NCBI GenBank assembly: GCA_036835125.1
Contig: DAITMO010000001.1
Location: 1 to 55,443 of the forward strand
DNA: 55,443 nt
Direction: 5' to 3'
Source: Patescibacteria group bacterium
GTDB lineage: Bacteria > Patescibacteriota > Microgenomatia > UBA8517
In this document: positions 56 to 47,754 of the stretch, piece after piece
Position numbering within the stretch: position 1 is the first letter of the stretch
Layout of the letters: each line of letters begins with the position of its first letter
Notes under the pieces: generated by a model
What the model saw: the letters and a program-made list of their open reading frames with translations, nothing else
Databases searched by the model: none
Told to the model about the DNA's origin: nothing
Translations under genes and position numbers: made by a program

Positions 56-907
56 CTGTTCTAATTAAAGAACAACTGACTATACCTTCATCCTCTCTCC
101 TAAAATAAGAGTAGGCGTTGGCGTGTTAGGTAAATTATAAAAAATACCTCTTTTCGTATTATCGAAAAAGTCGATACGGGGTCAAGAAATTTTATATATC
201 ATACTGGAATGAGTATATGGAGAAACCAGATCAAAAAATCTTTTTATGGATTCGTTTGATACTCTTAGTTTTCCATTTTTATGAAGAGTACTTTTAATAT
301 TAAACCTTCTTAAAAGCAAATCTTTCAAATTTTGTCTGCTTGTTAAATCAAAACCGTCAGTTGCAATTTTAACATTGCGACCTTCGGAATAATTACCATC
401 ATCCATATACCAAACCGCAAGAGATAAGGCAGAAACATATTTTTCAAAAGTCTTTGGAAAAATCTTTTTACCTTTTGGATAAAATTCTTTCCTCCAACTT
501 ATAAAATATTGTCTCAACCAAAATCTAATTTGCGAGTAATTTTTGTTATATCGATTATCAAATCTAGTTACTTCAGTTGGCGCTCCATACGATAAACTTT
601 TTAGTTCCTCGTACTTCCATAATAAATATGGTTTTTGAGATATGCTTTGAGCTATCTGAAACTGTCCTCTTGGAGAGATATAACCATCCCCCAAAAGTGA
701 ACCAACCAAGATTTCAATCTGACGATTACTGATAATTAATTTTAGATTTTTACGAGCTTTTAGTTCCAGCATGTTAAATTTCCGACTTCCCTCGGTATTG
801 CCTTAATATAATATAATCCGAAAATTATACGAAAATCAAGGGTTTCACCGATATGAGCCAAATTTTGCTTCCAAATTACTTCGGAAGGCCGCAGCGGTGT
901 ATTGTCT
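56..907 (-). mobile_element. Group I intron in 16S rRNA after U1078 (E. coli numbering), about 852 nt
   Basis: Removal restores CUCGUGCCGU|AGGGUGUUCCC. The 5' exon ends in U and the intron ends in G. P1: GCCGU pairs with GCGGC (U-G at the splice site). P10: ACACC(G)CU pairs with 3' exon AGGGUGU. Core-like elements AUCGGUGAAAC, GGCAAUACCGAG, CGUAUCGACU and GAAGGUAUAGUC occur in the expected order. Confidence 0.9.
182..772 (-). CDS. Intron-encoded LAGLIDADG homing endonuclease (I-SceI-like, two motifs)
   Basis: Motifs ILVGSLLGDG and LSLAVWYMDDG; lies between the Q and R core elements (P6 region) of the S1078 intron. Confidence 0.92.
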   Translation of the reverse strand: MLELKARKNLKLIISNRQIEILVGSLLGDGYISPRGQFQIAQSISQKPYLLWKYEELKSLSYGAPTEVTRFDNRYNKNYSQIRFWLRQYFISWRKEFYPKGKKIFPKTFEKYVSALSLAVWYMDDGNYSEGRNVKIATDGFDLTSRQNLKDLLLRRFNIKSTLHKNGKLRVSNESIKRFFDLVSPYTHSSMIYKIS

Positions 908-1090: not shown

Positions 1091-1206
1091 TAACCTTGCG
1101 GTCGTACTCCCCAGGCGGCTCGCTTAACGCGTTAGCTTACGAGGCTCACTCTTGCGAGCAAACCTCTAGCGAGCAAAGTTTACGGCTAGGACTACAGGGG
1201 TCTCTA

Positions 1207-2238
1207 CTGTCTGTTACTTGCTACGATTTAATACGTAGTCTCACAATCGCTTGTGAGGTCGGACTATATCTTTATCCTAAAAATTGAGGAAGATTATAAA
1301 TCTTGGCATTATTACCATAAGATGATAATGCCAGTGATAAAACTTGGTTCTTTTCCCAACCCTGCCAATAGGCAGAATGTTGAGTTATTTTAACTCCTTT
1401 GATAAAACCAACTTTTTCATAAAATTTTTGCAAGTCTTCTCTTTTTTCAATTCGAAGCTTATTATCTTTTAGTAAAAGTCTTGCACGAATACCTAAAATT
1501 TTTAATAATCTTAAGTAATCTTTTTGGAGTTGCGGATGTTTGCAAGCTAAAAATACACTACGAATCAAATGCTTATATCCATTTCTATGATTCGCTACAT
1601 ATAAATTAACTCCCCCATCACAACTAAAAGCTGCTTTTAAAAAAACCGATAATAGATTTTTACTCGTTGTATTATTAAATGGTATTTTTGTAGCGGGATA
1701 GATTACCCCATCTTTTACCGTTTTATAAGCAAGAGTTCTAAAAGTACCATATTTGGAATTTAAAATATTTCCACAATATCCACTATCAACAATTGCTTTA
1801 TAAAAAGGTTTACCATTAATTATTTTTTCAGATATTCTAATTCTTTTGTTTTCTAATCCAAAAACATTAATCATACATTTTCTAAACGTATTTATGATTT
1901 CAGATGAAGTGTTGCTAAGATAAAATCTCCAACAATTCTCTGATTTTTTGGATAAGCATCCATCAGTATATAAAATACCTAATAAAGTTGCTTCATCATT
2001 ACTCACTTCTCCTCGCTTAGGATATTCGACATGTAGTCTCTGAGGGTTCCCCTTTCGAGGTCTTCCCTGCTGATTGACTGCACTTATAGCATTTTCAGTT
2101 AAAGAAATCGGCATTAATTCAGTATTACCCGAATATAATACGAAGTCAATAACTAGCTTAAGATACTCAGTTATTCCAGCATATAGTCGAATTTTTTTGC
2201 CATTAATTACTTAATGGAGGAACTAGAGTTTAAACCCT
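1207..2238 (-). mobile_element. Group I intron in 16S rRNA after U788, about 1032 nt
   Basis: Removal restores GGGAU|UAGAGACCCC, with U at the 5' splice site and a terminal G. IGS CUCUAGUUCCU pairs with 5' exon AGGGAU (P1) and 3' exon UAGAG (P10). Canonical P (AUAUGCUGGAAU), Q (AAUCAGCAGG), R (CUCAGAGACUACA) and S (AAGAUAUAGUCC) elements are present. Confidence 0.93.
1272..2114 (-). CDS. Intron-encoded double-motif LAGLIDADG homing endonuclease (start uncertain: ATG 2114 or GTG 2006)
   Basis: Motifs ATLLGILYTDG and VFLKAAFSCDGG; the bulk lies between R and S (P8 loop). Confidence 0.88.
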   Translation of the reverse strand: MPISLTENAISAVNQQGRPRKGNPQRLHVEYPKRGEVSNDEATLLGILYTDGCLSKKSENCWRFYLSNTSSEIINTFRKCMINVFGLENKRIRISEKIINGKPFYKAIVDSGYCGNILNSKYGTFRTLAYKTVKDGVIYPATKIPFNNTTSKNLLSVFLKAAFSCDGGVNLYVANHRNGYKHLIRSVFLACKHPQLQKDYLRLLKILGIRARLLLKDNKLRIEKREDLQKFYEKVGFIKGVKITQHSAYWQGWEKNQVLSLALSSYGNNAKIYNLPQFLG

Positions 2239-3281
2239 ATCCCTTTCGCTCCCCTAGCTGTCGTTCCTCAGTGTCAAAAAATGATTAGCTTCCTGCCTTC
2301 GCCCTTGGAGTTCCTGATGATATCAACGTATTTCACTACTACACCATCAGTTCCAGAAGCCCCATCACCTTTCAATCTAAATAGTATTACTCCCCTTCCC
2401 CCGGTTGAGCCGTGGTCTTTGAAGAATAACTTATCTAGAAACCTACGAAACGCTTTACGCCCAATAAATCCGGATAACGCTTGCACCCTCTGTATTACCG
2501 CGGCTGCTGGCACAGAGTTAGCAGGTGCTTATTCTCAATAACTTCTCAATTACTGTAAAAGGAGTTTACAACCCGAAGGCCTTCATCCCCCACGCGGCAT
2601 TGCGACGTCAGGCTTTCGCCCATTGCGTACGATTCCCTGTTGCTGCCGACCGTAGTCGTATGGACCGTGTCTCAGTTCCATTCTGGGGAAACGCGCTCTC
2701 ACGCCCCCTACCCGTCATAGCCTTGGTAGGCCATTACCCTACCAACAAGCTGATGGGAGATAGGCTCATCCATCGGCGCGCAGTGAAGCGCTTTTCTCTT
2801 TCGAGGTCATGCGGTATTAGCCCTACTTTCGAAGGGGTATTCCACACCATTGGGGAGATTCCTATCCATTACTCAGCCGTTCGCAACTGAAAGTATTGCT
2901 ACTTTCCGTTCTACTTGCATGCATTAGGCATGCCGCCAGCGTTAATCCTGGGCCAGGATCAAACCCTCAAATAGTGTCTAATTAACAAATAAATGTTAAA
3001 AGACGAATCCTGTTTCCAATCACGTTTTGAATTCCAAAACATGTTTTCTTCCCAGACTTCGCACAGAGGTCTAGGAAATTTGTATTAACCTGTTAATCTT
3101 TGGATTTTAAGGTGCTTAAAATCTTTAAGGTAAAAACGACAGTCATAAATACTAACGGACTAACTTAAAAATAAACTAATTCGGGTCCTTCTTATTTAAA
3201 ACTGTGATTTGTACCTTAAAATGTGCTTGGAGAGTTATCAACCTATGAGGCGAGTCAACTTATTCCTTCAGTGTAGGTAGT

Positions 3282-27303: not shown

Positions 27304-27787
27304 ATTTTTTTAGTAATTCTTTTGCAATTTTTTCTATAGTTTTATTTAACATTTCTTTTTCTTCCTTGTTGTAACTTTGAAGTACATATTCTTCCCCCAT
27401 TACTCTATTATCCATCGGTCTATTGTCAACTCCTACTCTCACATGCCAATATTGGTTTGAACCCAAAGCTTCATCAATTGATTTAAGACCGTTATGGTCT
27501 TTTGGTCCTTTTCCAAATTGAATTTTAGGTCCCCTTCCAAGCTTTATATCCAAATCATCATGAATTACAAAGAGATCTTGAGGGTTTATGTTGTATTTTT
27601 TAACCAAGTTTAAAACAAACTCTCCAGAGTTATTCATAAACTCGTCTGATTCTTTTAAAACAACATTTTTTGGAAATTTACCTTTATCTTGAAGCCCTTT
27701 GAGTTTTTTAATAGCAACAATTCCTGCATTATGCCAGGTGTCTAAATATTCCAAACCGGGGTTACCAATACCAACAATGAGTTTCAT
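27290..27787 (-). CDS. pth: Peptidyl-tRNA hydrolase
   Basis: LIVGIGNPG..Y..T.HNAG, FMNNSG, IHDDLD, HNGLKS, RVGV, YVL. Confidence 0.93.
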   Translation of the reverse strand: MKLIVGIGNPGLEYLDTWHNAGIVAIKKLKGLQDKGKFPKNVVLKESDEFMNNSGEFVLNLVKKYNINPQDLFVIHDDLDIKLGRGPKIQFGKGPKDHNGLKSIDEALGSNQYWHVRVGVDNRPMDNRVMGEEYVLQSYNKEEKEMLNKTIEKIAKELLKKFKSQ

Positions 27788-40626: not shown

Positions 40627-40977
40627 TTAGCGTACTTTTGTCCCGTTTTCTACCTTCTTTTGTGGCTCAAAAAGTATTGTTGGAGTTTCTTCATCTTCCC
40701 CAGGGACTGCCATAATCATCATCGCTTCAGATAGTTCCTTTTCGGGACCAATTTTTCTGGGTTCAAGGTTCACTACAAATGGGAATTGTTTTCCTACTAA
40801 ATCTTCAGGCTTAAAAAATTTCATTATACCTGAAAAACAAATTTTCTCTCCCAGTTCCTCTCCTAAATCAACTTTCAGCCTCATTACCCAATGACTCCAT
40901 TCTGGAACTGAGGCTTCGGTAACAGTTCCAATTCTTATATCCACCTTTTCAAAATCTGTGTATTCAATTGTGTCCAT
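40627..40977 (-). CDS. tRNA-binding protein (Trbp111/CsaA/MetRS C-terminal-like); likely start 40977
   Basis: DFEKVDIRIGTV, VDLG, VVNLEPR, SEAM. Confidence 0.85.
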   Translation of the reverse strand: MDTIEYTDFEKVDIRIGTVTEASVPEWSHWVMRLKVDLGEELGEKICFSGIMKFFKPEDLVGKQFPFVVNLEPRKIGPEKELSEAMMIMAVPGEDEETPTILFEPQKKVENGTKVR

Positions 40978-40998
40978 TACTCTGTATAATATCATATT

Positions 40999-41292
40999 AT
41001 GGCCGACCAATTAGACTCTCGTACTCCACCAACAACAGATCAAATATTAGAATGGCAAAAACAAGATTTAGATAGGCGCAGAGAAAAAAGAACACCGAAG
41101 GTAAAACCAACAGAATTTTCTAGGCCTCCATTGGCAGGAAAAACCCCAGGTCCAGGCAGGGCAGAATTAGAAGGATCTGCTTTTGAACCAGGGAGAAGTA
41201 ATCTACCACCAAACACTTTTGGATATAGACCTGATGCAAGAAACCCTGAGGATATAATGGTTGCAAGGGAAGAGAAAAAAGGGAGTATTTAA
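40999..41292 (+). CDS. Hypothetical low-complexity protein
   Basis: TATAAT upstream of the ATG; Pro/Arg-rich. Confidence 0.45.
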   Translation: MADQLDSRTPPTTDQILEWQKQDLDRRREKRTPKVKPTEFSRPPLAGKTPGPGRAELEGSAFEPGRSNLPPNTFGYRPDARNPEDIMVAREEKKGSI

Positions 41293-42272
41293 ATCAAACC
41301 TATTTTATTTTTAACTTCGGTAATGGTTTCTTGAGCAATTTTTCTGGCTTTCTCTGCTCCTTCTTTGATTATTTTATTCACCTCTTTTGGATTATCTTCA
41401 TAATATTTTCTTTTCTCTTGAATTGAGGCAAGTTCTTTATAAATAGCTTCAGCAAGTTCAGATTTTAAGTCTCCATAACGAATCCCTTCTCCAAGATATT
41501 TAGCTTCATATTCTTTTCTTTTATCAACTCCTTCAAAAAGTTCAACAAATTTTAGTAGATTAGCCACACCGCCTTTTTCTGGAATTTGTTCTCCTTTACC
41601 AGAATCTGTTGGGGCACCTGATAGTTTCTTTTTAATCTCATCAATCGAATCAGTTAAGTTTATGAAACTTCCTTCAACACTTTTGCTCATTTTTCCCTCC
41701 CCTGTTAGACTTGGTACATATTCCCCTTTTGTGGCAAAACGTTTTGGTTCTGGAAAATCTAACCCAAACTTATCATTCATTTTTCTGGCTATTTCTCGAG
41801 CAACTTCCAAATGAGGTTCTTGATCAATTCCTACAGGAACTAGACCTGCTTTATAAAGAAGGATGTCTGCTGCCATCAATACTGGATAATTTAGAAGTGC
41901 CATGGTTACGTTATCAGGGTGTTGTTTTACCTTTTCTTTAAATGTTGGAAGGTGCTGCATTCTGGCAACTGTTATTTCGGAAGATAGAATATGAGCTAAA
42001 TATGTATGCTCTGGAACTAAAGATTGTGCTGTAATTATTGATTTTTCAGGATCAAGCCCACAAGCTAAATAATCCATAATTACATTTCTGGTATTCTCTG
42101 CAAGCTTGTCTTTATCATACGGTGTCGTTATTGCATGCAAATCCATCACCATATAAATGGTTTCATACTCAGGGTTATCGGAAAGCTCCATATAACCCTT
42201 GACCGCGCCTAGGTAATTGCCTAAATGCAGTCTTCCTGTTGCTCTTGTTCCTGAAAATACTCTTTTCTTCAT
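41289..42272 (-). CDS. trpS: Tryptophan--tRNA ligase
   Basis: HLGN (HIGH), YPVLMAADIL, PVG.DQ..H.E, KMSKS. Confidence 0.96.
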   Translation of the reverse strand: MKKRVFSGTRATGRLHLGNYLGAVKGYMELSDNPEYETIYMVMDLHAITTPYDKDKLAENTRNVIMDYLACGLDPEKSIITAQSLVPEHTYLAHILSSEITVARMQHLPTFKEKVKQHPDNVTMALLNYPVLMAADILLYKAGLVPVGIDQEPHLEVAREIARKMNDKFGLDFPEPKRFATKGEYVPSLTGEGKMSKSVEGSFINLTDSIDEIKKKLSGAPTDSGKGEQIPEKGGVANLLKFVELFEGVDKRKEYEAKYLGEGIRYGDLKSELAEAIYKELASIQEKRKYYEDNPKEVNKIIKEGAEKARKIAQETITEVKNKIGLI

Positions 42273-42297
42273 ATTTTTAGTTTATCAGAAATTCCAC

Positions 42298-42409
42298 AAA
42301 AAAATCCGTCCCTCATTTATATAAGGACGGATAATCCGTGGTGCCACCTTAATTACTTCTTAATTGTTTCTAAAAGCTCCGGAGTTCCAACCTTCTCCAT
42401 CATTGCTTT
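42298..42409 (-). ncRNA. Putative minimal T-box riboswitch (Trp) with intrinsic terminator upstream of trpS
   Basis: K-turn Stem I AAAGC-AAUGA-UGGAG-[AAGGUUGGAA]-CUCCG-GA-GCUUU with UGG in the loop; antiterminator UAAGG-UGGCACC-ACGGA-UUA-UCCGU-CCUUA; overlapping terminator AUCCGUCC..GGACGGAU plus U-tract. Confidence 0.8.
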
Positions 42410-42418
42410 ATCTTCGTG

Positions 42419-42487
42419 TTGCGGGGTTGGGAGTTGCGCCCAACCTGTGAGATTATGAGCCTCACGTGCACTGTACACTACCCCGCA
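42419..42487 (-). tRNA. Non-canonical tRNA (CAT), initiator-like acceptor stem, degenerate D- and T-loops
   Basis: TGCGGGG/CCCCGCA acceptor; TGAGG-CTCATAA-TCTCA anticodon arm; D-loop ACAGT without GG; T-loop CGCAACT; extended -10 TGcTATAAT upstream. Confidence 0.65.
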
Positions 42488-42547
42488 TATAGAACTAACG
42501 ACTGCAATTATAGCACAAGGGTGCGTAAAATGGTAAAATACGGCAAT

Positions 42548-42621
42548 GTCAAGGTAGCTCAGTTGGTTAGAGCACGGCAATCATAACGCTGAGGTCGAGG
42601 GTTCGAATCCCTCCCTTGACA
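42548..42621 (+). tRNA. tRNA (CAT), elongator Met or Ile2; CCA not encoded
   Basis: GTCAAGG/CCTTGAC acceptor, GAGGG-TTCGAAT-CCCTC T-arm, anticodon loop ATCATAA; extended -10 TGgTAAAAT upstream. Confidence 0.9.
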
Positions 42622-42623
42622 CA

Positions 42624-43013
42624 CTATAAAAATAGCTTCTTCCACTTCATCCAATTAGGATCAGGGAGTGAATTTTCGATAGTACTTAGGGGTGGTGCAA
42701 AGCTTTTAACTATTTCTTCATCAGGCAAAACCACCATTGCTTCCCCTTCTTTTGTGAGTCCAAGCTTATCTCTCATTTGTTTTTCAATAAATTCAGTTCC
42801 TTGAGCCTCATTTATTTGTGTCTGAAGGGCTTTATTTTCGGCCTCCATTTTTTCTACTCTAACTCTTTCTTCTTCTACTTGTTTTCTAATGCTAACCACC
42901 CTACTTATATTCTTCACTGTAGAAATTGAGAAAATAACAATTAGTCCCCATATTGTATACCCAATAAGCTTTCCAAACTTCTTTTTTACCAGTTCTAATC
43001 TTTTTTCGTTCAT
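42624..43013 (-). CDS. Septum formation initiator (FtsB/DivIC) family protein
   Basis: TM, coiled coil, FIEKQMRDKLGL.K.GE..V. Confidence 0.85.
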   Translation of the reverse strand: MNEKRLELVKKKFGKLIGYTIWGLIVIFSISTVKNISRVVSIRKQVEEERVRVEKMEAENKALQTQINEAQGTEFIEKQMRDKLGLTKEGEAMVVLPDEEIVKSFAPPLSTIENSLPDPNWMKWKKLFL

Positions 43014-43094: not shown

Positions 43095-43958
43095 ATGGCA
43101 CAAGAACCTATTAAAAATCTGCTTCCAAAGTTTATAGATTCATTAACCGAGAAAAAAAGGTCTCCAGCAACCATTTTGGCCTACAGGAGTGACCTTACAC
43201 AGCTCGTGGATTTTTTGATTAGACGCGAAAAAGTTCTTCCAGAACAAGTAAGACCTGATGATTTAGATGGATTCAGGGATACTCTTTTGAATGACAAATA
43301 CACTCCAAAATCTGTCAGTAGGAAGCTAAACGCAGTTAAAACATTCTTTAGGTGGATGATTTCTGAAAATATTATTTCAACCGACGTTTCTTCATCCGTT
43401 GCCCATCCAAAAATTGAAAGTGCCCTTCCAAAATTTCTTTCCCCTATGGAATATAGATCTCTTAGAGACATTGTAAGAAGTGATGTTAGAATTGCTGCAA
43501 TTATTGAACTCATTCTACAAACTGGTCTTAGAATCTCAGAGGTTGCAAGCTTGAAATCTGAAAATATTAAAGATGGTGTCATGAAGATTGAAGCATATGC
43601 TACTCAACCTGAGCGTAGCGTTCCTCTAAATAAACCAAGCCAGGATGTTTTAAATGCATATTTGGTAGTTCGTCCAAAAGTTGAATCTCCTTTTGTTTTT
43701 ATTAGTAAAAATGGAAAAGCGCTAGCAGTAAGAAACATTAGGGCTTCAATTGCAAGATACGTTCAAAAAGCAGAACTTCCAGCATATTCTGTAAATGACC
43801 TCAGAACCACGTTTATTGTTGAAAACTTGAAAGCTGGAGTTGATATAGTTCTTCTTTCTCAAGTTTCAGGACACAAACGTCTTTCAACAACTGAAAGGTA
43901 CCTTGAACTTGCTCAAATAACAGATCCTGGAAAGAAACAGACTTTGATTGAATTATAA
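43095..43958 (+). CDS. Tyrosine recombinase, XerC/D-like
   Basis: SPATILAYRSDL, SVSRKL.A.K.FF, TGLRISE, NDLR, SGH..LSTTERY. Confidence 0.88.
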   Translation: MAQEPIKNLLPKFIDSLTEKKRSPATILAYRSDLTQLVDFLIRREKVLPEQVRPDDLDGFRDTLLNDKYTPKSVSRKLNAVKTFFRWMISENIISTDVSSSVAHPKIESALPKFLSPMEYRSLRDIVRSDVRIAAIIELILQTGLRISEVASLKSENIKDGVMKIEAYATQPERSVPLNKPSQDVLNAYLVVRPKVESPFVFISKNGKALAVRNIRASIARYVQKAELPAYSVNDLRTTFIVENLKAGVDIVLLSQVSGHKRLSTTERYLELAQITDPGKKQTLIEL

Positions 43959-44309: not shown

Positions 44310-44507
44310 GTGGACCCAATAGAGTCGAACTATCCCTTTGGTTCTTATATCACGTTTCGCAATGCACAATATAAAAGAACTGTTGTGGGCCTGAATGGAG
44401 TCGGACCATTATCTCGAATTTATAAGATTCGCGTCCTAACCGCTGAACGACAGGCCCATCTTTGTTACAAGACTCCCACCCTAACAAAATGGAAAAGGTT
44501 CCAATGA
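44310..44507 (+). CDS. Possible hypothetical protein (65 aa)
   Basis: GTG start just after the receiver gene; no motif. Confidence 0.3.
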   Translation: MDPIESNYPFGSYITFRNAQYKRTVVGLNGVGPLSRIYKIRVLTAERQAHLCYKTPTLTKWKRFQ

Positions 44508-45420: not shown

Positions 45421-47754
45421 TTACATATTTGAACGTCTGGATATTTCTGCTTCAACTAATTTTTCGTCGCGTCCATACTTAAGTCTACTCATTTCTTTTA
45501 TTATCTCGGCAACCCTGGTGCTTTCCATCTCTTTTATCTTTGTTAAGTCTTTTGTTGTGTCTAGGGAGAATGGTGGAACAGGTTCATTGTTTACAATTGT
45601 TTTACAGTAGGCATGATAGCGTTCAACATTTAATAGATCATCTTCTCCAAATGTTGGAGTAAATTCATGTTGAAGATAGTTTGCATCAGTCACTCCAACT
45701 CTAAATGAGATCAAAGTTCCAACGTTTCCAAATACTGCATTTTTAACCTCTTCCTCAACCTGTCCAATAAACTGATTTGCTACACATAGTCCTAAACCAT
45801 ATTTTCTTGCTTCAGATAGAATTACTGCAAAGTCAGGTGTGGCAAAGTTTTGGAACTCATCAACATAGAAATAAAAGTCTTTTCTCTGTTCTTTACTAAG
45901 ATTTGCCCTACTCATTGCGGCCATTAGAATTCGGGGAACAAGAAGAAGTCCCAAGAAATTACTATTCTCTTCTCCAAGCGTACCTTTAGCTAAATTAATA
46001 AGAAGAATTTTACCTTCATCCATAATTTTCCTTACATCAAATGAACTTTGAGATTGCCCTATGATATTTCTTATAAGTTTATTCGTAACAAAACGACCGA
46101 ACTTTGAAACTGTATAGTCCAAAACTTCTGATTTATGGAAGTCCGAAGTCTGTGCAATCTGATCCGTCCAATAGCGCCTTACAATTGGATCTGTGACGTG
46201 AGGGAGAAGTTCTTGAACATACTTAGCATCCGTCATGATTCTCATAATTTCAACAAAGGTGTTACCAGGTACACTCATTGCAGTAAGCATGGCGTTTCTA
46301 ACTCCATGCTCAAAACGTGGGCCCACAATACCAGTCTTATAGGGATCAAAAAGTTTATACATAAGGTTAATTATTGAGGTTGCCGCAAAGTGTTTTTCAT
46401 CCTCAGTTCTTGCCTCCAATAGGTTCATTCCCAGGGGTCGTTCCACATCACTTGGGTTGAAATAAATTACATCCTCTGCACGCTCAGGAGGAATGAGTTT
46501 AAGAATATCCTCAACTGCATCTCCATGAGGATCCATGAAACAAACTCCTTTACCTGCTTTTATGTCTTGTAAAATAAGATCTTTTAGAAGTTCCGATTTT
46601 CCAACACCAGTTTTTCCAATAACATAAATGTGTTGCATTCTATCTTTATCACTTAAGTAAACTGGTCTTTTGACTCCCCTATATGCACTCATACCAATAT
46701 GAAGGCCTTCTGTTGGGATCTGAGCTGGGGCAGGAGCAGTTTTGGCATTCAACCAGTAAATATGCGGGGTTGTTACTTGTTTGTTTGGTAAATGGAATAT
46801 GGATGCTAATTCTTCTGAATTTAAGATTGATCCGTGATTTCCTAAAACATTGAACATTGGCTGATATCTATATAAAAAGTCCTCCATAAAACTCGACTTC
46901 CTATATATTTTTCTACTTTTGAGATTGTTTAAATCACTAGCAAATTGGGAAAAGGCTCCCACAATATTGGTAACAGTGCTCTTTGCAGTCTCTTCATTTT
47001 CTGAAACTGCAATGATTCTTATGGAAGTTTCAAAGCCAGGTTTTGCAATTTTTGATTCAATTGCCTCTAGGGTTTTGCCTGAGGTTGAGAATTTGGCTTT
47101 TTCGGCATCACTTTCATTCTTTTTGGTGTCGGAAACAAACTTTCCACCTTCTTTTTGCCAATCGGATTCTACCGGTGAAATAATAATTTGGATCACTGCA
47201 GCGTCCTTGGGGCCCATTTTGGCTAGAGCTGATGTTAAAGAAAGCATTGGATCAGTTGCTAAATCTTTAAATGTTTTTAGAGGGTAATAATTATTTTTCC
47301 CAAGCTGTAGTGCCTTATATGCAACTTTTCCGTTGTTTTCAAAAATATTATATTCATCTACCTCCAATATCTCTGCTTCAGGGAATGCACCATTAATTTG
47401 TTTTTCTATTAAATCTTTAAGTTTTGTTGGTGTCCAGACATAGAAACGGATATCTTCTTGCCTGGCTACAATTTCAAAGGAAATTGATGGTTGAACCGAA
47501 AACTTTTGCTTCCATCCACCTTTTTTAATTGAATAGAGGCTTGCAAAGAGTTGTTCCATTGCATCAATTTTTGTTTCATTATTCCTAGGAACTGCAATTT
47601 GCAAAATTACTGAATCAATTGAAGCCTTTTCTCTATCCCTGTTTTTAAAGAAAATAAAAACAGAGTATCCTAATGCAACAAGTAAAAATACTAATATTGC
47701 AATTAAAATAGCTACTGCCAAAATTTCAGAATAGTTTATCGCATCAAGTTGCAT
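45421..47754 (-). CDS. VirD4/TraD/HerA-like ATPase with N-terminal TM
   Basis: H.YVIGKTGVGKS, DPHGD, YVDEFQNF, LSEARKY.L.L..ANQ. Confidence 0.88.
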   Translation of the reverse strand: MQLDAINYSEILAVAILIAILVFLLVALGYSVFIFFKNRDREKASIDSVILQIAVPRNNETKIDAMEQLFASLYSIKKGGWKQKFSVQPSISFEIVARQEDIRFYVWTPTKLKDLIEKQINGAFPEAEILEVDEYNIFENNGKVAYKALQLGKNNYYPLKTFKDLATDPMLSLTSALAKMGPKDAAVIQIIISPVESDWQKEGGKFVSDTKKNESDAEKAKFSTSGKTLEAIESKIAKPGFETSIRIIAVSENEETAKSTVTNIVGAFSQFASDLNNLKSRKIYRKSSFMEDFLYRYQPMFNVLGNHGSILNSEELASIFHLPNKQVTTPHIYWLNAKTAPAPAQIPTEGLHIGMSAYRGVKRPVYLSDKDRMQHIYVIGKTGVGKSELLKDLILQDIKAGKGVCFMDPHGDAVEDILKLIPPERAEDVIYFNPSDVERPLGMNLLEARTEDEKHFAATSIINLMYKLFDPYKTGIVGPRFEHGVRNAMLTAMSVPGNTFVEIMRIMTDAKYVQELLPHVTDPIVRRYWTDQIAQTSDFHKSEVLDYTVSKFGRFVTNKLIRNIIGQSQSSFDVRKIMDEGKILLINLAKGTLGEENSNFLGLLLVPRILMAAMSRANLSKEQRKDFYFYVDEFQNFATPDFAVILSEARKYGLGLCVANQFIGQVEEEVKNAVFGNVGTLISFRVGVTDANYLQHEFTPTFGEDDLLNVERYHAYCKTIVNNEPVPPFSLDTTKDLTKIKEMESTRVAEIIKEMSRLKYGRDEKLVEAEISRRSNM

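Follow-up and report, generated by a model that had tools for sequence, protein, structure and literature searches.

Organization of the locus

A contig of 55,443 nucleotides (nt) from a Patescibacteria group bacterium (GenBank assembly GCA_036835125.1, contig DAITMO010000001.1) was analyzed over its full length, and this whole stretch is referred to here as the window. The element under study is a short sequence with a tRNA-like fold and the anticodon CAT, which lies directly in front of a tryptophan (Trp) T-box leader and the tryptophanyl-tRNA synthetase gene trpS (Table 1). All coordinates are those of the 55-kb window, and the tRNA, the T-box, and trpS are all on the minus strand. The original prediction called the element a degenerate tRNA fused to the T-box, and proposed either a mitochondrion-like relaxed initiator tRNA, perhaps tied to leaderless initiation, or a tRNA-like leader whose processing releases the trpS transcript. 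The results of this study suggest that it is quite probably a functional initiator tRNA (tRNAfMet) gene of a Candidatus Woesebacteria genome, and that the tRNA and the T-box are independent modules joined by intergenic compaction.

Table 1. Predicted features of the trpS locus in the window, with the evidence for each
Feature	Position	Strand	Evidence
Divergent canonical tRNA(CAU), G1-C72, normal D arm and T loop	42548..42622	(+)	ARAGORN
Predicted promoter: -35 TTACCA (42536-42531), 18-nt spacer, extended -10 TGcTATAAT (42515-42507)	42507..42536	(-)	Promoter scan
Initiator-type tRNA(CAU) gene	42419..42487	(-)	ARAGORN; family model; family covariation; identical copies in relatives
9-nt spacer CACGAAGAU, from A73 to the first Stem I pair	42410..42418	(-)	Coordinates read from the sequence
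Ultrashort T-box Stem I	42373..42409	(-)	Rfam alignment; fold; two-sided changes among relatives
Unstructured 22-nt linker UAGAAACAAUUAAGAAGUAAUU	42351..42372	(-)	Rfam alignment
T-box sequence and antiterminator	42323..42350	(-)	Rfam alignment; fold
Intrinsic terminator AUCCGUCCUUA-loop-GAGGGACGGAU, then U7	42298..42332	(-)	Minimum-free-energy folds
trpS, tryptophanyl-tRNA synthetase, 327 aa (regulated gene)	41289..42272	(-)	PF00579 at 8e-60

The element reads as a cloverleaf of 69 nt, in which tRNA positions 1 to 73 run from 42487 down to 42419 and CCA is not encoded. ARAGORN predicted a tRNA-Met(CAT) at 42418-42487 on the same strand, and both observations agree with the earlier description of a 69-nt CAT cloverleaf with intact acceptor, anticodon, and T stems. 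The acceptor stem (UGCGGGG/CCCCGCA) starts with a U1-A72 pair and is followed by the discriminator A73. The D arm consists of the stem GUGU/GCAC and the 5-nt loop ACAGU, which has a single G and no GG. The anticodon (42457-42455) lies in the loop CUCAUAA on the stem UGAGG/UCUCA, in which pairs 29:41, 30:40, and 31:39 are A-U, G-C, and G·U; the U1-A72 pair and the missing three G-C pairs had thus been read correctly. The variable loop is CAGG, and the T arm has the stem UUGGG/CCCAA and the loop CGCAACU, which contains C54 G55 C56 and no UUC. The elbow of the tRNA is therefore A18 G19/C54 G55 C56/A58, compared to the canonical G18 G19/T54 Ψ55 C56/A58 (Ψ, pseudouridine). The claim that the D-loop GG and the T-loop TTC are lost holds only in part: both motifs are absent, but G19, C56, A57, and A58 are retained.

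A short-D-arm tRNA family in Patescibacteria

Closely similar tRNA(CAT) genes of 70-71 nt were found by ARAGORN close to trpS in many related loci, which are designated here by L numbers. The family was collected with the pattern TGCACGNNNGGCTCATAATC, using one genome per species, and at least 120 stretches were recovered, nearly all from Patescibacteria, the Candidate Phyla Radiation (CPR). The matches listed for this pattern yielded 111 tRNAs with 70 distinct sequences, and the family is present in more than 100 CPR genomes. Its members share a D arm reduced to a 4-bp stem with a loop of 5-6 nt, and a lower anticodon stem of the form au/GC/gu (A-U, G-C, and G·U).

The four-stem tRNA cloverleaf is supported by covariation. 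Across the alignment of the 70 distinct sequences, 97.6% of the cells are paired, a figure that is partly due to construction, as is the invariance at fixed positions, since the pattern and the accompanying regular expression fix about 30 positions in the D arm and lower anticodon arm and the acceptor and T stems were required to be mostly paired. Two-sided changes occur at 11 of the 21 pairs. None of 500 shuffles reached the paired fraction or the two-sided pair count of the family, and sliding the 3′ partners as a control lowered the pairing to 25-57%. Because the pattern and filter fix the remainder, the informative covariation is that at 27:43, 28:42, and 29:41, in the T stem, and at acceptor pairs 6:67 and 7:66. 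Pairs 30:40 and 31:39 are fixed by the search pattern and are invariant in the family by construction; likewise, the constancy of CUCAUAA is not evidence, because this loop was fixed by the collecting filter.

A covariance model was built from members of the family in other genomes, namely, 60 relatives with G18G19 and UUC-type T loops, and all sequences with A18 and G55 were left out. With this model, the window tRNA scored 88.9 bits (E 1.7e-20) over its full length (1-70), and the five other tRNAs of the window scored 38 bits or less. The general Rfam tRNA model detected 10 of the 10 tested G18G19/UUC members (45-56 bits) and none of the 7 A18/G55 members. Because that model misses the A18/G55 variant, the window copy had resembled a non-tRNA. 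Its folding energy is modest (z = -2.7; 3 of 200 shuffles fold equally well), and the minimum-free-energy fold mispairs the T arm.

The tRNA is identical at all 69 positions in the window and in L003, L103, and L089, where the flanks are only 48-83% identical. In these comparisons, identity is 68-83% over the 60 nt upstream, 77-78% in the T-box leader, and 63-82% in trpS DNA. These values point to strong purifying selection on the window tRNA gene.

A coordinated substitution at the tRNA elbow

In the 70 distinct sequences, A18 is strictly tied to G55 (contingency 10/0/0/60, Fisher 2.5e-12, a value that ignores shared ancestry). The ten distinct A18 sequences have the D loops ACAGU, AGAGUU, or AGAGCU; all of them have G55 and nine also have C54, and G55 is found in none of the 60 sequences without A18. 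Furthermore, the variant occurs in both C1 and U1 acceptor backgrounds and is therefore either old or recurrent. These results suggest that the loss of GG and TTC is a coordinated swap rather than decay, in which the elbow contact G18-Ψ55 together with U54 appears to have been replaced jointly by A18, G55, and C54, and the G19-C56 contact, A57, and A58 were kept.

The alternative that the element is a decaying pseudogene or a tRNA relic, left by rearrangement or integration beside the tyrosine recombinase gene at 43095-43958, is extremely unlikely. It would account for the loss of G18, U54, and U55, for the absence of an Rfam tRNA match, for the recombinase and conjugative coupling-protein genes nearby, and for the rearrangement breakpoint at the tRNA 3′ end between L089 and L103. 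However, a relic would be expected neither to remain identical over 69 nt at four loci with diverged flanks nor to keep four intact stems with compensatory changes throughout the family, and the supposed defects recur as a strict pair in ten distinct sequences and at least two backgrounds behind a promoter that is conserved in relatives. The term "degenerate" is thus not supported by the purifying selection, the covarying stems, and the D-loop/T-loop swap seen in many genomes.

Compared to metazoan mitochondrial tRNAs, the window tRNA shares the loss of the canonical G18-Ψ55 and T54 elbow signature. It differs from them in that it keeps four arms, the G19-C56 contact, A58, and the stem lengths, and shows a paired substitution rather than general reduction. 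The label "mitochondrion-like" does not fit a tRNA with four intact arms, and the au/GC/gu anticodon stem is a natural bacterial variant (PMC5389676). Nothing was found in support of a tie to leaderless initiation.

In E. coli, the N-terminal domain of initiation factor IF3 touches G19, Ψ55, C56, and A57 of the initiator elbow (PMC9723500), and because of this contact the G55 variant may matter for the fidelity of initiation. It is conceivable, although on balance doubtful, that Microgenomates possess a structurally distinct initiator (5-nt D loop, U1-A72, au/GC/gu, and in a large sub-lineage A18-G55/C54) that has co-evolved with an altered initiation machinery. As a tentative suggestion, such an alteration might lie in formylation that is changed or absent, or in changed contacts of the IF3 N-terminal domain.

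Probable initiator identity of the window tRNA

Several features connect the window tRNA to bacterial initiators. First, G2-C71 and C3-G70 are determinants for the formyltransferase, and A73 is the discriminator (PMC5389676); all three are present in the window copy. In the family, C3-G70, G4-C69, G5-C68, and A73 are invariant in 70 of 70 distinct sequences and G2-C71 is found in 68. Second, in a side-by-side reading with E. coli tRNAfMet, a sequence that all 5426 E. coli genomes carry in about four copies each, annotated as tRNA-Met, the acceptor positions 2-7/66-71 (GCGGGG/CCCCGC), A73, and the CUCAUAA anticodon loop with its CAU are the same. Third, family members outside Microgenomates share with E. 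coli metZWV/metY tRNAfMet the mismatch C1×A72, a mark typical of bacterial initiators. Position 1:72 is C1×A72 in 35 of the 70 sequences, U1-A72 in 34, and A1-U72 in one; the C1×A72 members are non-Microgenomates and Levyibacteria-type, and the U1-A72 members are Microgenomates.

The window tRNA is different from E. coli tRNAfMet in several respects. It has U1-A72 instead of the mismatch, A-U/G-C/G·U instead of three G-C pairs, a D loop of 5 rather than 9 nt, a length before CCA of 69 rather than 74 nt, and A18/C54/G55 instead of G18/T54/Ψ55. CCA is not encoded in the window tRNA gene, and the pair 11:24 is U11-A24, while that of E. coli tRNAfMet is A11-U24. A weak U-A pair at 1:72 is reported to be tolerated by the formyltransferase. 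As to the anticodon stem, au/GC/gu is a natural exception among initiators in mycoplasmas and α-proteobacteria (PMC5389676), which share with the window tRNA the same departure from the three G-C pairs and its three consecutive purine:pyrimidine pairs. The window tRNA, unlike these initiators, is also altered at the elbow and at 1:72, and belongs to the CPR. The mycoplasma and α-proteobacterial initiators are not known to depart from a normal D loop, a normal T loop, and the 1×72 mismatch.

It is improbable that the element is a functional CAU tRNA of another kind, either an elongator tRNA-Met or a lysidine-modified tRNA-Ile2, with the true initiator elsewhere in the genome. The paired U1-A72, the elongator-like U11-A24, and the single G-C pair left in the 29-31 stack would suit such a tRNA; furthermore, the assignment of elongator-Met and Ile2 to the two canonical CAU classes is an assumption, and the inventory extends over the window. 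On the other hand, CPR orthologues with the same D and anticodon arms carry C1×A72, G2-C71, C3-G70, and A73. A canonical tRNA(CAU) with G1-C72 is already present in the window at 42548; it scores 65.7 bits with the Rfam tRNA model and only 30.9 bits with the initiator-family model and appears to be elongator-type (or Ile2-type) rather than an initiator. In relatives, the family member is adjoined by two other CAU classes that have G1-C72 and in which the D and T loops are of the usual form; the tRNA at 42548-42622 belongs to one of them. An ARAGORN inventory, which had been proposed as a check for a canonical initiator, found none other in the 55 kb covered, and 42419-42487 is the sole initiator-like gene in the window by ARAGORN, Rfam, and the family model.

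A tRNA-Ile(UAU) gene is present at 44385-44457(-), and ARAGORN found the same gene near the tRNA-Met cluster in several relatives. The anticodon UAU is rare in bacteria and bears on the need for a lysidine-modified tRNA-Ile2(CAU); this tRNA is less necessary because of the canonical tRNA(CAU) at 42548 and the tRNA-Ile(UAU) gene in the window.

A number of points weigh against identification of the element as a functional initiator co-transcribed with the T-box. The Rfam tRNA model RF00005 did not report it at the gathering threshold (29 bits) or at E<=10, where Rfam gave noise only (Tymo_tRNA-like at 19 bits, and mir-3547 on the opposite strand). Part of the family statistics arises by construction, as described above. 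With a Watson-Crick pair at 1:72 (U1-A72), an elongator-like U11-A24, and a single G-C pair in place of three, the tRNA would initiate poorly by E. coli rules. No one genome showed all three CAU classes, which were observed across different genomes, and a second, canonical initiator may exist in the genome beyond the 55-kb window. Finally, a weak internal promoter, e.g., with the anticodon-loop CATAAT as -10, may contribute to transcription downstream of the tRNA.

In a motif scan of the window and the relative loci, which form a small sample, no CPR fmt or def was found, and the window contained only pth, near 27772. A search of the available literature library found no paper on initiator tRNAs or T-boxes of CPR/Patescibacteria. 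Collectively, the features suggest that the window tRNA is an initiator by descent and by most identity elements, although it lacks several textbook features (the 1×72 mismatch, the three G-C pairs, and G18/T54/Ψ55). The earlier view of an initiator-type tRNA in which the canonical features are relaxed is supported; methionine charging, formylation, and use in the P site are putative.

A minimal Trp T-box in front of trpS

The predicted T-box is unusually small. Together with its terminator, it forms a minimal transcriptional Trp T-box of about 115 nt at 42298-42412(-), and such mini T-boxes are also found in L001, L003, L103, L117, L023, L097, and L187. Its Stem I has a basal helix (AAAGC/GCUUU), a K-turn-like motif (AAUGA..GGA), a 4-bp helix (GGAG/CUCC), and a 10-nt terminal loop, AAGGUUGGAA. 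This loop contains the Trp specifier UGG at 42389-42387, followed by A (UGG-A, 42389-42386). The UGG-purine specifier is kept in all eight mini T-boxes, and both Stem I helices show two-sided changes among L001, L003, L103, L117, L023, and L187, with UGG-purine retained.

In the linker, Stem II, the IIA/B pseudoknot, and Stem III are absent, and a purine run, AAGAAG, flanks the expected Stem III site; a Stem III-like hairpin is kept in the mini T-box of L023. The antiterminator consists of helix A1 (AAGG/CCUU), a 7-nt bulge (UGGCACC), and helix A2 (ACGGA/UCCGU), with the T-box sequence AAGGUGGCACCACGG. UGGC of the bulge is complementary to a tRNA 3′ end GCCA. In folding, the leader adopts the antiterminator when it is cut before the 3′ arm of the terminator; at full length, it adopts the terminator with U7. 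The terminator overlaps the 3′ half of the antiterminator and is the first one downstream of the tRNA gene. A consensus terminator scan missed it; by our own count, its loop exceeds the 8-nt limit of the scan.

The Rfam T-box model RF00230 aligns to 42412-42320(-) with 43.2 bits (E 2.7e-8), which is below the 93-bit gathering threshold. In this alignment, 74 positions of upper Stem I are replaced by 8 nt, 40 positions of the Stem II region by 0, and 18 positions of Stem III by 0. The T-box is nevertheless real, though far under the Rfam cut-off, with its UGG-A specifier, UGGC bulge, antiterminator/terminator pair, and trpS downstream. A generic scan with a Trp T-box pattern recovered mostly ordinary Firmicutes T-boxes and chance matches, and half of the metagenome matches were due to chance.

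It has been reviewed that a truncated Stem I needs Stem II for binding of the tRNA and that Stem III is indispensable (PMC7583486). The window T-box, which is without contacts held necessary there, may perhaps be a more unusual object than the tRNA. Like the actinobacterial ileS ultrashort T-box, it presents the specifier without a distal elbow-binding platform, and like the glyQS T-box, it is without Stem II; the antiterminator has a UGGN bulge, as in both (PMC7583486). The ileS T-boxes, however, keep Stem II and IIA/B and act on translation, whereas the window has a classic terminator. The glyQS T-boxes still have Stem III and a long Stem I, whereas the window T-box lacks Stem II, Stem III, and the distal part of Stem I all at once.

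The UGGC bulge predicts G73 in tRNA-Trp. A tRNA-Trp in L020 (2879-2954) has G73, and that of L008 (1450-1522), a Woesebacteria relative without a trpS T-box, has A73; the window sequence contains no tRNA-Trp gene.

The closest relatives of the window TrpS, at 85-86% identity, are from Candidatus Woesebacteria/Microgenomates metagenome-assembled genomes (MAGs). Just downstream of trpS, a 127-aa tRNA_bind (PF01588) gene is located at 40627-41010(-), and homologues of it follow the trpS match in many trpS-centered relatives (e.g., L001, L003, L005, L007, and L012). The 278-nt gap between the two genes of the window holds a 97-aa open reading frame (ORF) on the opposite strand without a Pfam match.

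Promoter and proposed transcription unit

Scanning of 42150-42750 identified a single sigma-70-like site on the minus strand, that at 42536-42507 upstream of the tRNA, in agreement with the earlier statement that TGcTATAAT is the only clear promoter and lies upstream of the tRNA. Its promoter function is predicted from sequence features. The predicted start is near 42500 and gives the tRNA a 5′ leader of about 12 nt. The sequence TGCTATAATTGC is kept at equal distance upstream of the tRNA in L003, L103, L089, and L233, and a -10 element about 19 nt upstream of the tRNA is conserved in all lineages.

The distance of 9 nt from the tRNA to Stem I (42418-42410) is as described before. This spacer is too short for a promoter, and is presumed to be the 3′ trailer of the tRNA, removed by a 3′-processing nuclease before CCA addition. 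The tRNA and the T-box-trpS unit probably share one promoter and are co-transcribed. Because the only promoter-like site is upstream of the tRNA, maturation of the tRNA would also free the T-box-trpS RNA. Furthermore, because the T-box begins only 9 nt after the tRNA, the terminator of the attenuator would also end the tRNA transcript.

A mechanism for the locus can be proposed as follows. Transcription would start near 42500 at the extended -10 promoter, and RNA polymerase would pass through the tRNA straight into the Trp T-box leader, which is promoterless here. RNase P would trim the 5′ leader, a 3′ endonuclease would cut after A73, and the CCA-adding enzyme would finish the tRNA; the RNA left over would start with the T-box leader. 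When tRNA-Trp is charged, the T-box terminator would stop most transcripts and double as the terminator of the tRNA. When tRNA-Trp is uncharged, it would base-pair both at the specifier (UGG) and at the bulge (UGGC), favor the antiterminator, and allow transcription of trpS.

In E. coli, metY-nusA-infB and thrU-tyrU-glyT-thrT-tufB are operons with promoter-proximal tRNA genes (an initiator in the case of metY) that continue into protein genes and whose products are freed from one another by RNase P and 3′ processing. Unlike in these units, the downstream partner in the window opens with a T-box attenuator 9 nt after the tRNA, and co-transcription is predicted from the arrangement of the locus.

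Linkage of the tRNA and the T-box in relatives

Conservation of the linkage had been suggested as a check, with a divided outcome: direct fusion is seen in three lineages, but the modules are separate in other relatives. The three lineages with direct fusion (a gap of 6-10 nt with no -10 in between) are represented by the window, by L003/L088/L233, and by L103/L230/L232. In L023, L097, and L117, the order is tRNAfMet, canonical tRNA-Met, and T-box, with a -10 before the T-box that is clear in L023 and L117 and doubtful in L097; in L001, the order is canonical tRNA-Met, TAGTATAAT, and T-box. In the relatives with an intervening tRNA, a -10 (TAGTATAAT, TGGTATAAT, or GATATAAT) stands directly before the T-box. 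In L187, the mini T-box is preceded by a TATAAT of its own, and a distance of 400 nt contains no tRNA. In L007, L010, and L026, the synteny tRNAfMet-tRNA-Met-trpS is present without any T-box, and the initiator tRNA gene of L010 has its own terminator. Finally, L089 has an identical tRNA and promoter with unrelated DNA downstream.

Because the modules occur apart in relatives, the adjacency represents compacted inherited synteny rather than functional dependency. The tRNA and the T-box thus appear to be functionally independent modules that result from compaction of an old tRNAfMet-(tRNA-Met)-trpS neighborhood.

A different view is that the tRNA is a tRNA-like cis element of the T-box leader, either a processing signal that makes the 5′ end of the mRNA or a scaffold that replaces the missing stems. 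A tRNA gene does lie 6-35 nt upstream in seven of the eight mini-T-box loci inspected, L187 being excepted; the window T-box is without every auxiliary tRNA contact called necessary (PMC7583486); and the fusion is kept in three lineages, even with a TrpS of only 37% identity. This view is nonetheless very unlikely. In L187 the T-box has its own TATAAT and no nearby tRNA, in L001, L117, and L023 a -10 separates the T-box from an upstream tRNA that is elongator-type, more than 100 genomes have the tRNA and mostly far from any T-box, and the synteny in L007, L010, and L026 has no T-box at all. The earlier proposal of a dedicated tRNA-like T-box leader is likewise at odds with mini T-boxes that carry a -10 themselves and have no initiator tRNA next to them (L187, L001, L117, and L023), and with the same tRNA standing alone in L010 and L089.

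Two specific forms of such a dependency were considered and rejected. The tRNA does not serve as the missing distal Stem I, as the Rfam T-box alignment starts only downstream of the tRNA, and Stem I forms a closed hairpin of its own; the presence of the tRNA in more than 100 genomes, mostly without a nearby T-box, also contradicts this idea. A role of the tRNA as a cis-scaffold aiding the minimal T-box was rejected on the basis of L187, L001, and L117.

Three side observations were made on these loci. First, the tRNAfMet/mini-T-box module in L103, L230, and L232 (and also in L117 and L097) precedes a second type of TrpS, 37% identical to that of the window, which suggests either that the synthetase gene was exchanged in place while the leader was conserved, or that Woesebacteria have two lineages of TrpS under T-box control. 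Second, L089 and L103 are identical over 60 nt upstream and the 69-nt tRNA but lose all similarity no more than a few nt past A73; because they diverge right there, the 3′ end of the initiator tRNA is a rearrangement breakpoint. Third, in L001 a segment that ends in the 3′ half of the canonical tRNA-Met is repeated in tandem about every 71 nt, at about 2700-2870, immediately before the T-box promoter; these copies may be an assembly artefact or scars of repeated integration.

Significance and genomic context

In a sizeable number of CPR genomes, namely, those of the Levyibacteria type and some of the Woesebacteria, the initiator tRNA escapes the Rfam tRNA model. As a result, completeness estimates and tRNA inventories of A18/G55 CPR genomes may be wrong, and these genomes may seem initiator-less under Infernal-based annotation, for which a family-specific model is a remedy. 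The strict exchange of G18/U55 for A18/G55 (with C54) is a case in nature of covariation between partners of a tertiary contact at the elbow, and it affects the one tRNA that is read there by IF3. Together with U1-A72 and au/GC/gu, the elbow swap provides a natural test of which "universal" initiator features are required. In this reduced genome, the T-box attenuator would borrow the promoter of the tRNA and the tRNA gene would borrow the terminator of the attenuator. No known mechanism is overturned by the findings on the tRNA and the T-box.

A 16S rRNA match at 1114-2966(-) covers only model positions 9-873 over 1853 nt, which implies about 1 kb of inserted sequence. LAGLIDADG homing-endonuclease ORFs (PF14528, PF03161) are located within and beyond this match, at 1272-2114(-) and 182-772(-), and such ORFs in a 16S rRNA gene fit a CPR genome.

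The tRNA cluster is flanked by a tyrosine recombinase gene at 43095-43958(+), with Phage_integrase and SAM-like N-terminal domains, and by a gene for a TraG/VirD4-like coupling protein at 45421-47754(-). These surroundings may represent a mobile-element neighborhood, or the recombinase may simply be XerC/D.

Many MAG records titled "uncultured Gammaproteobacteria" or "Pseudomonadales" (TPA_asm; L001, L002, L004, L008, L009, and many of L040-L158) carry a Woesebacteria-like TrpS (81-86%). The same MAGs also carry the CPR-type initiator tRNA, and their titles are evidently wrong.

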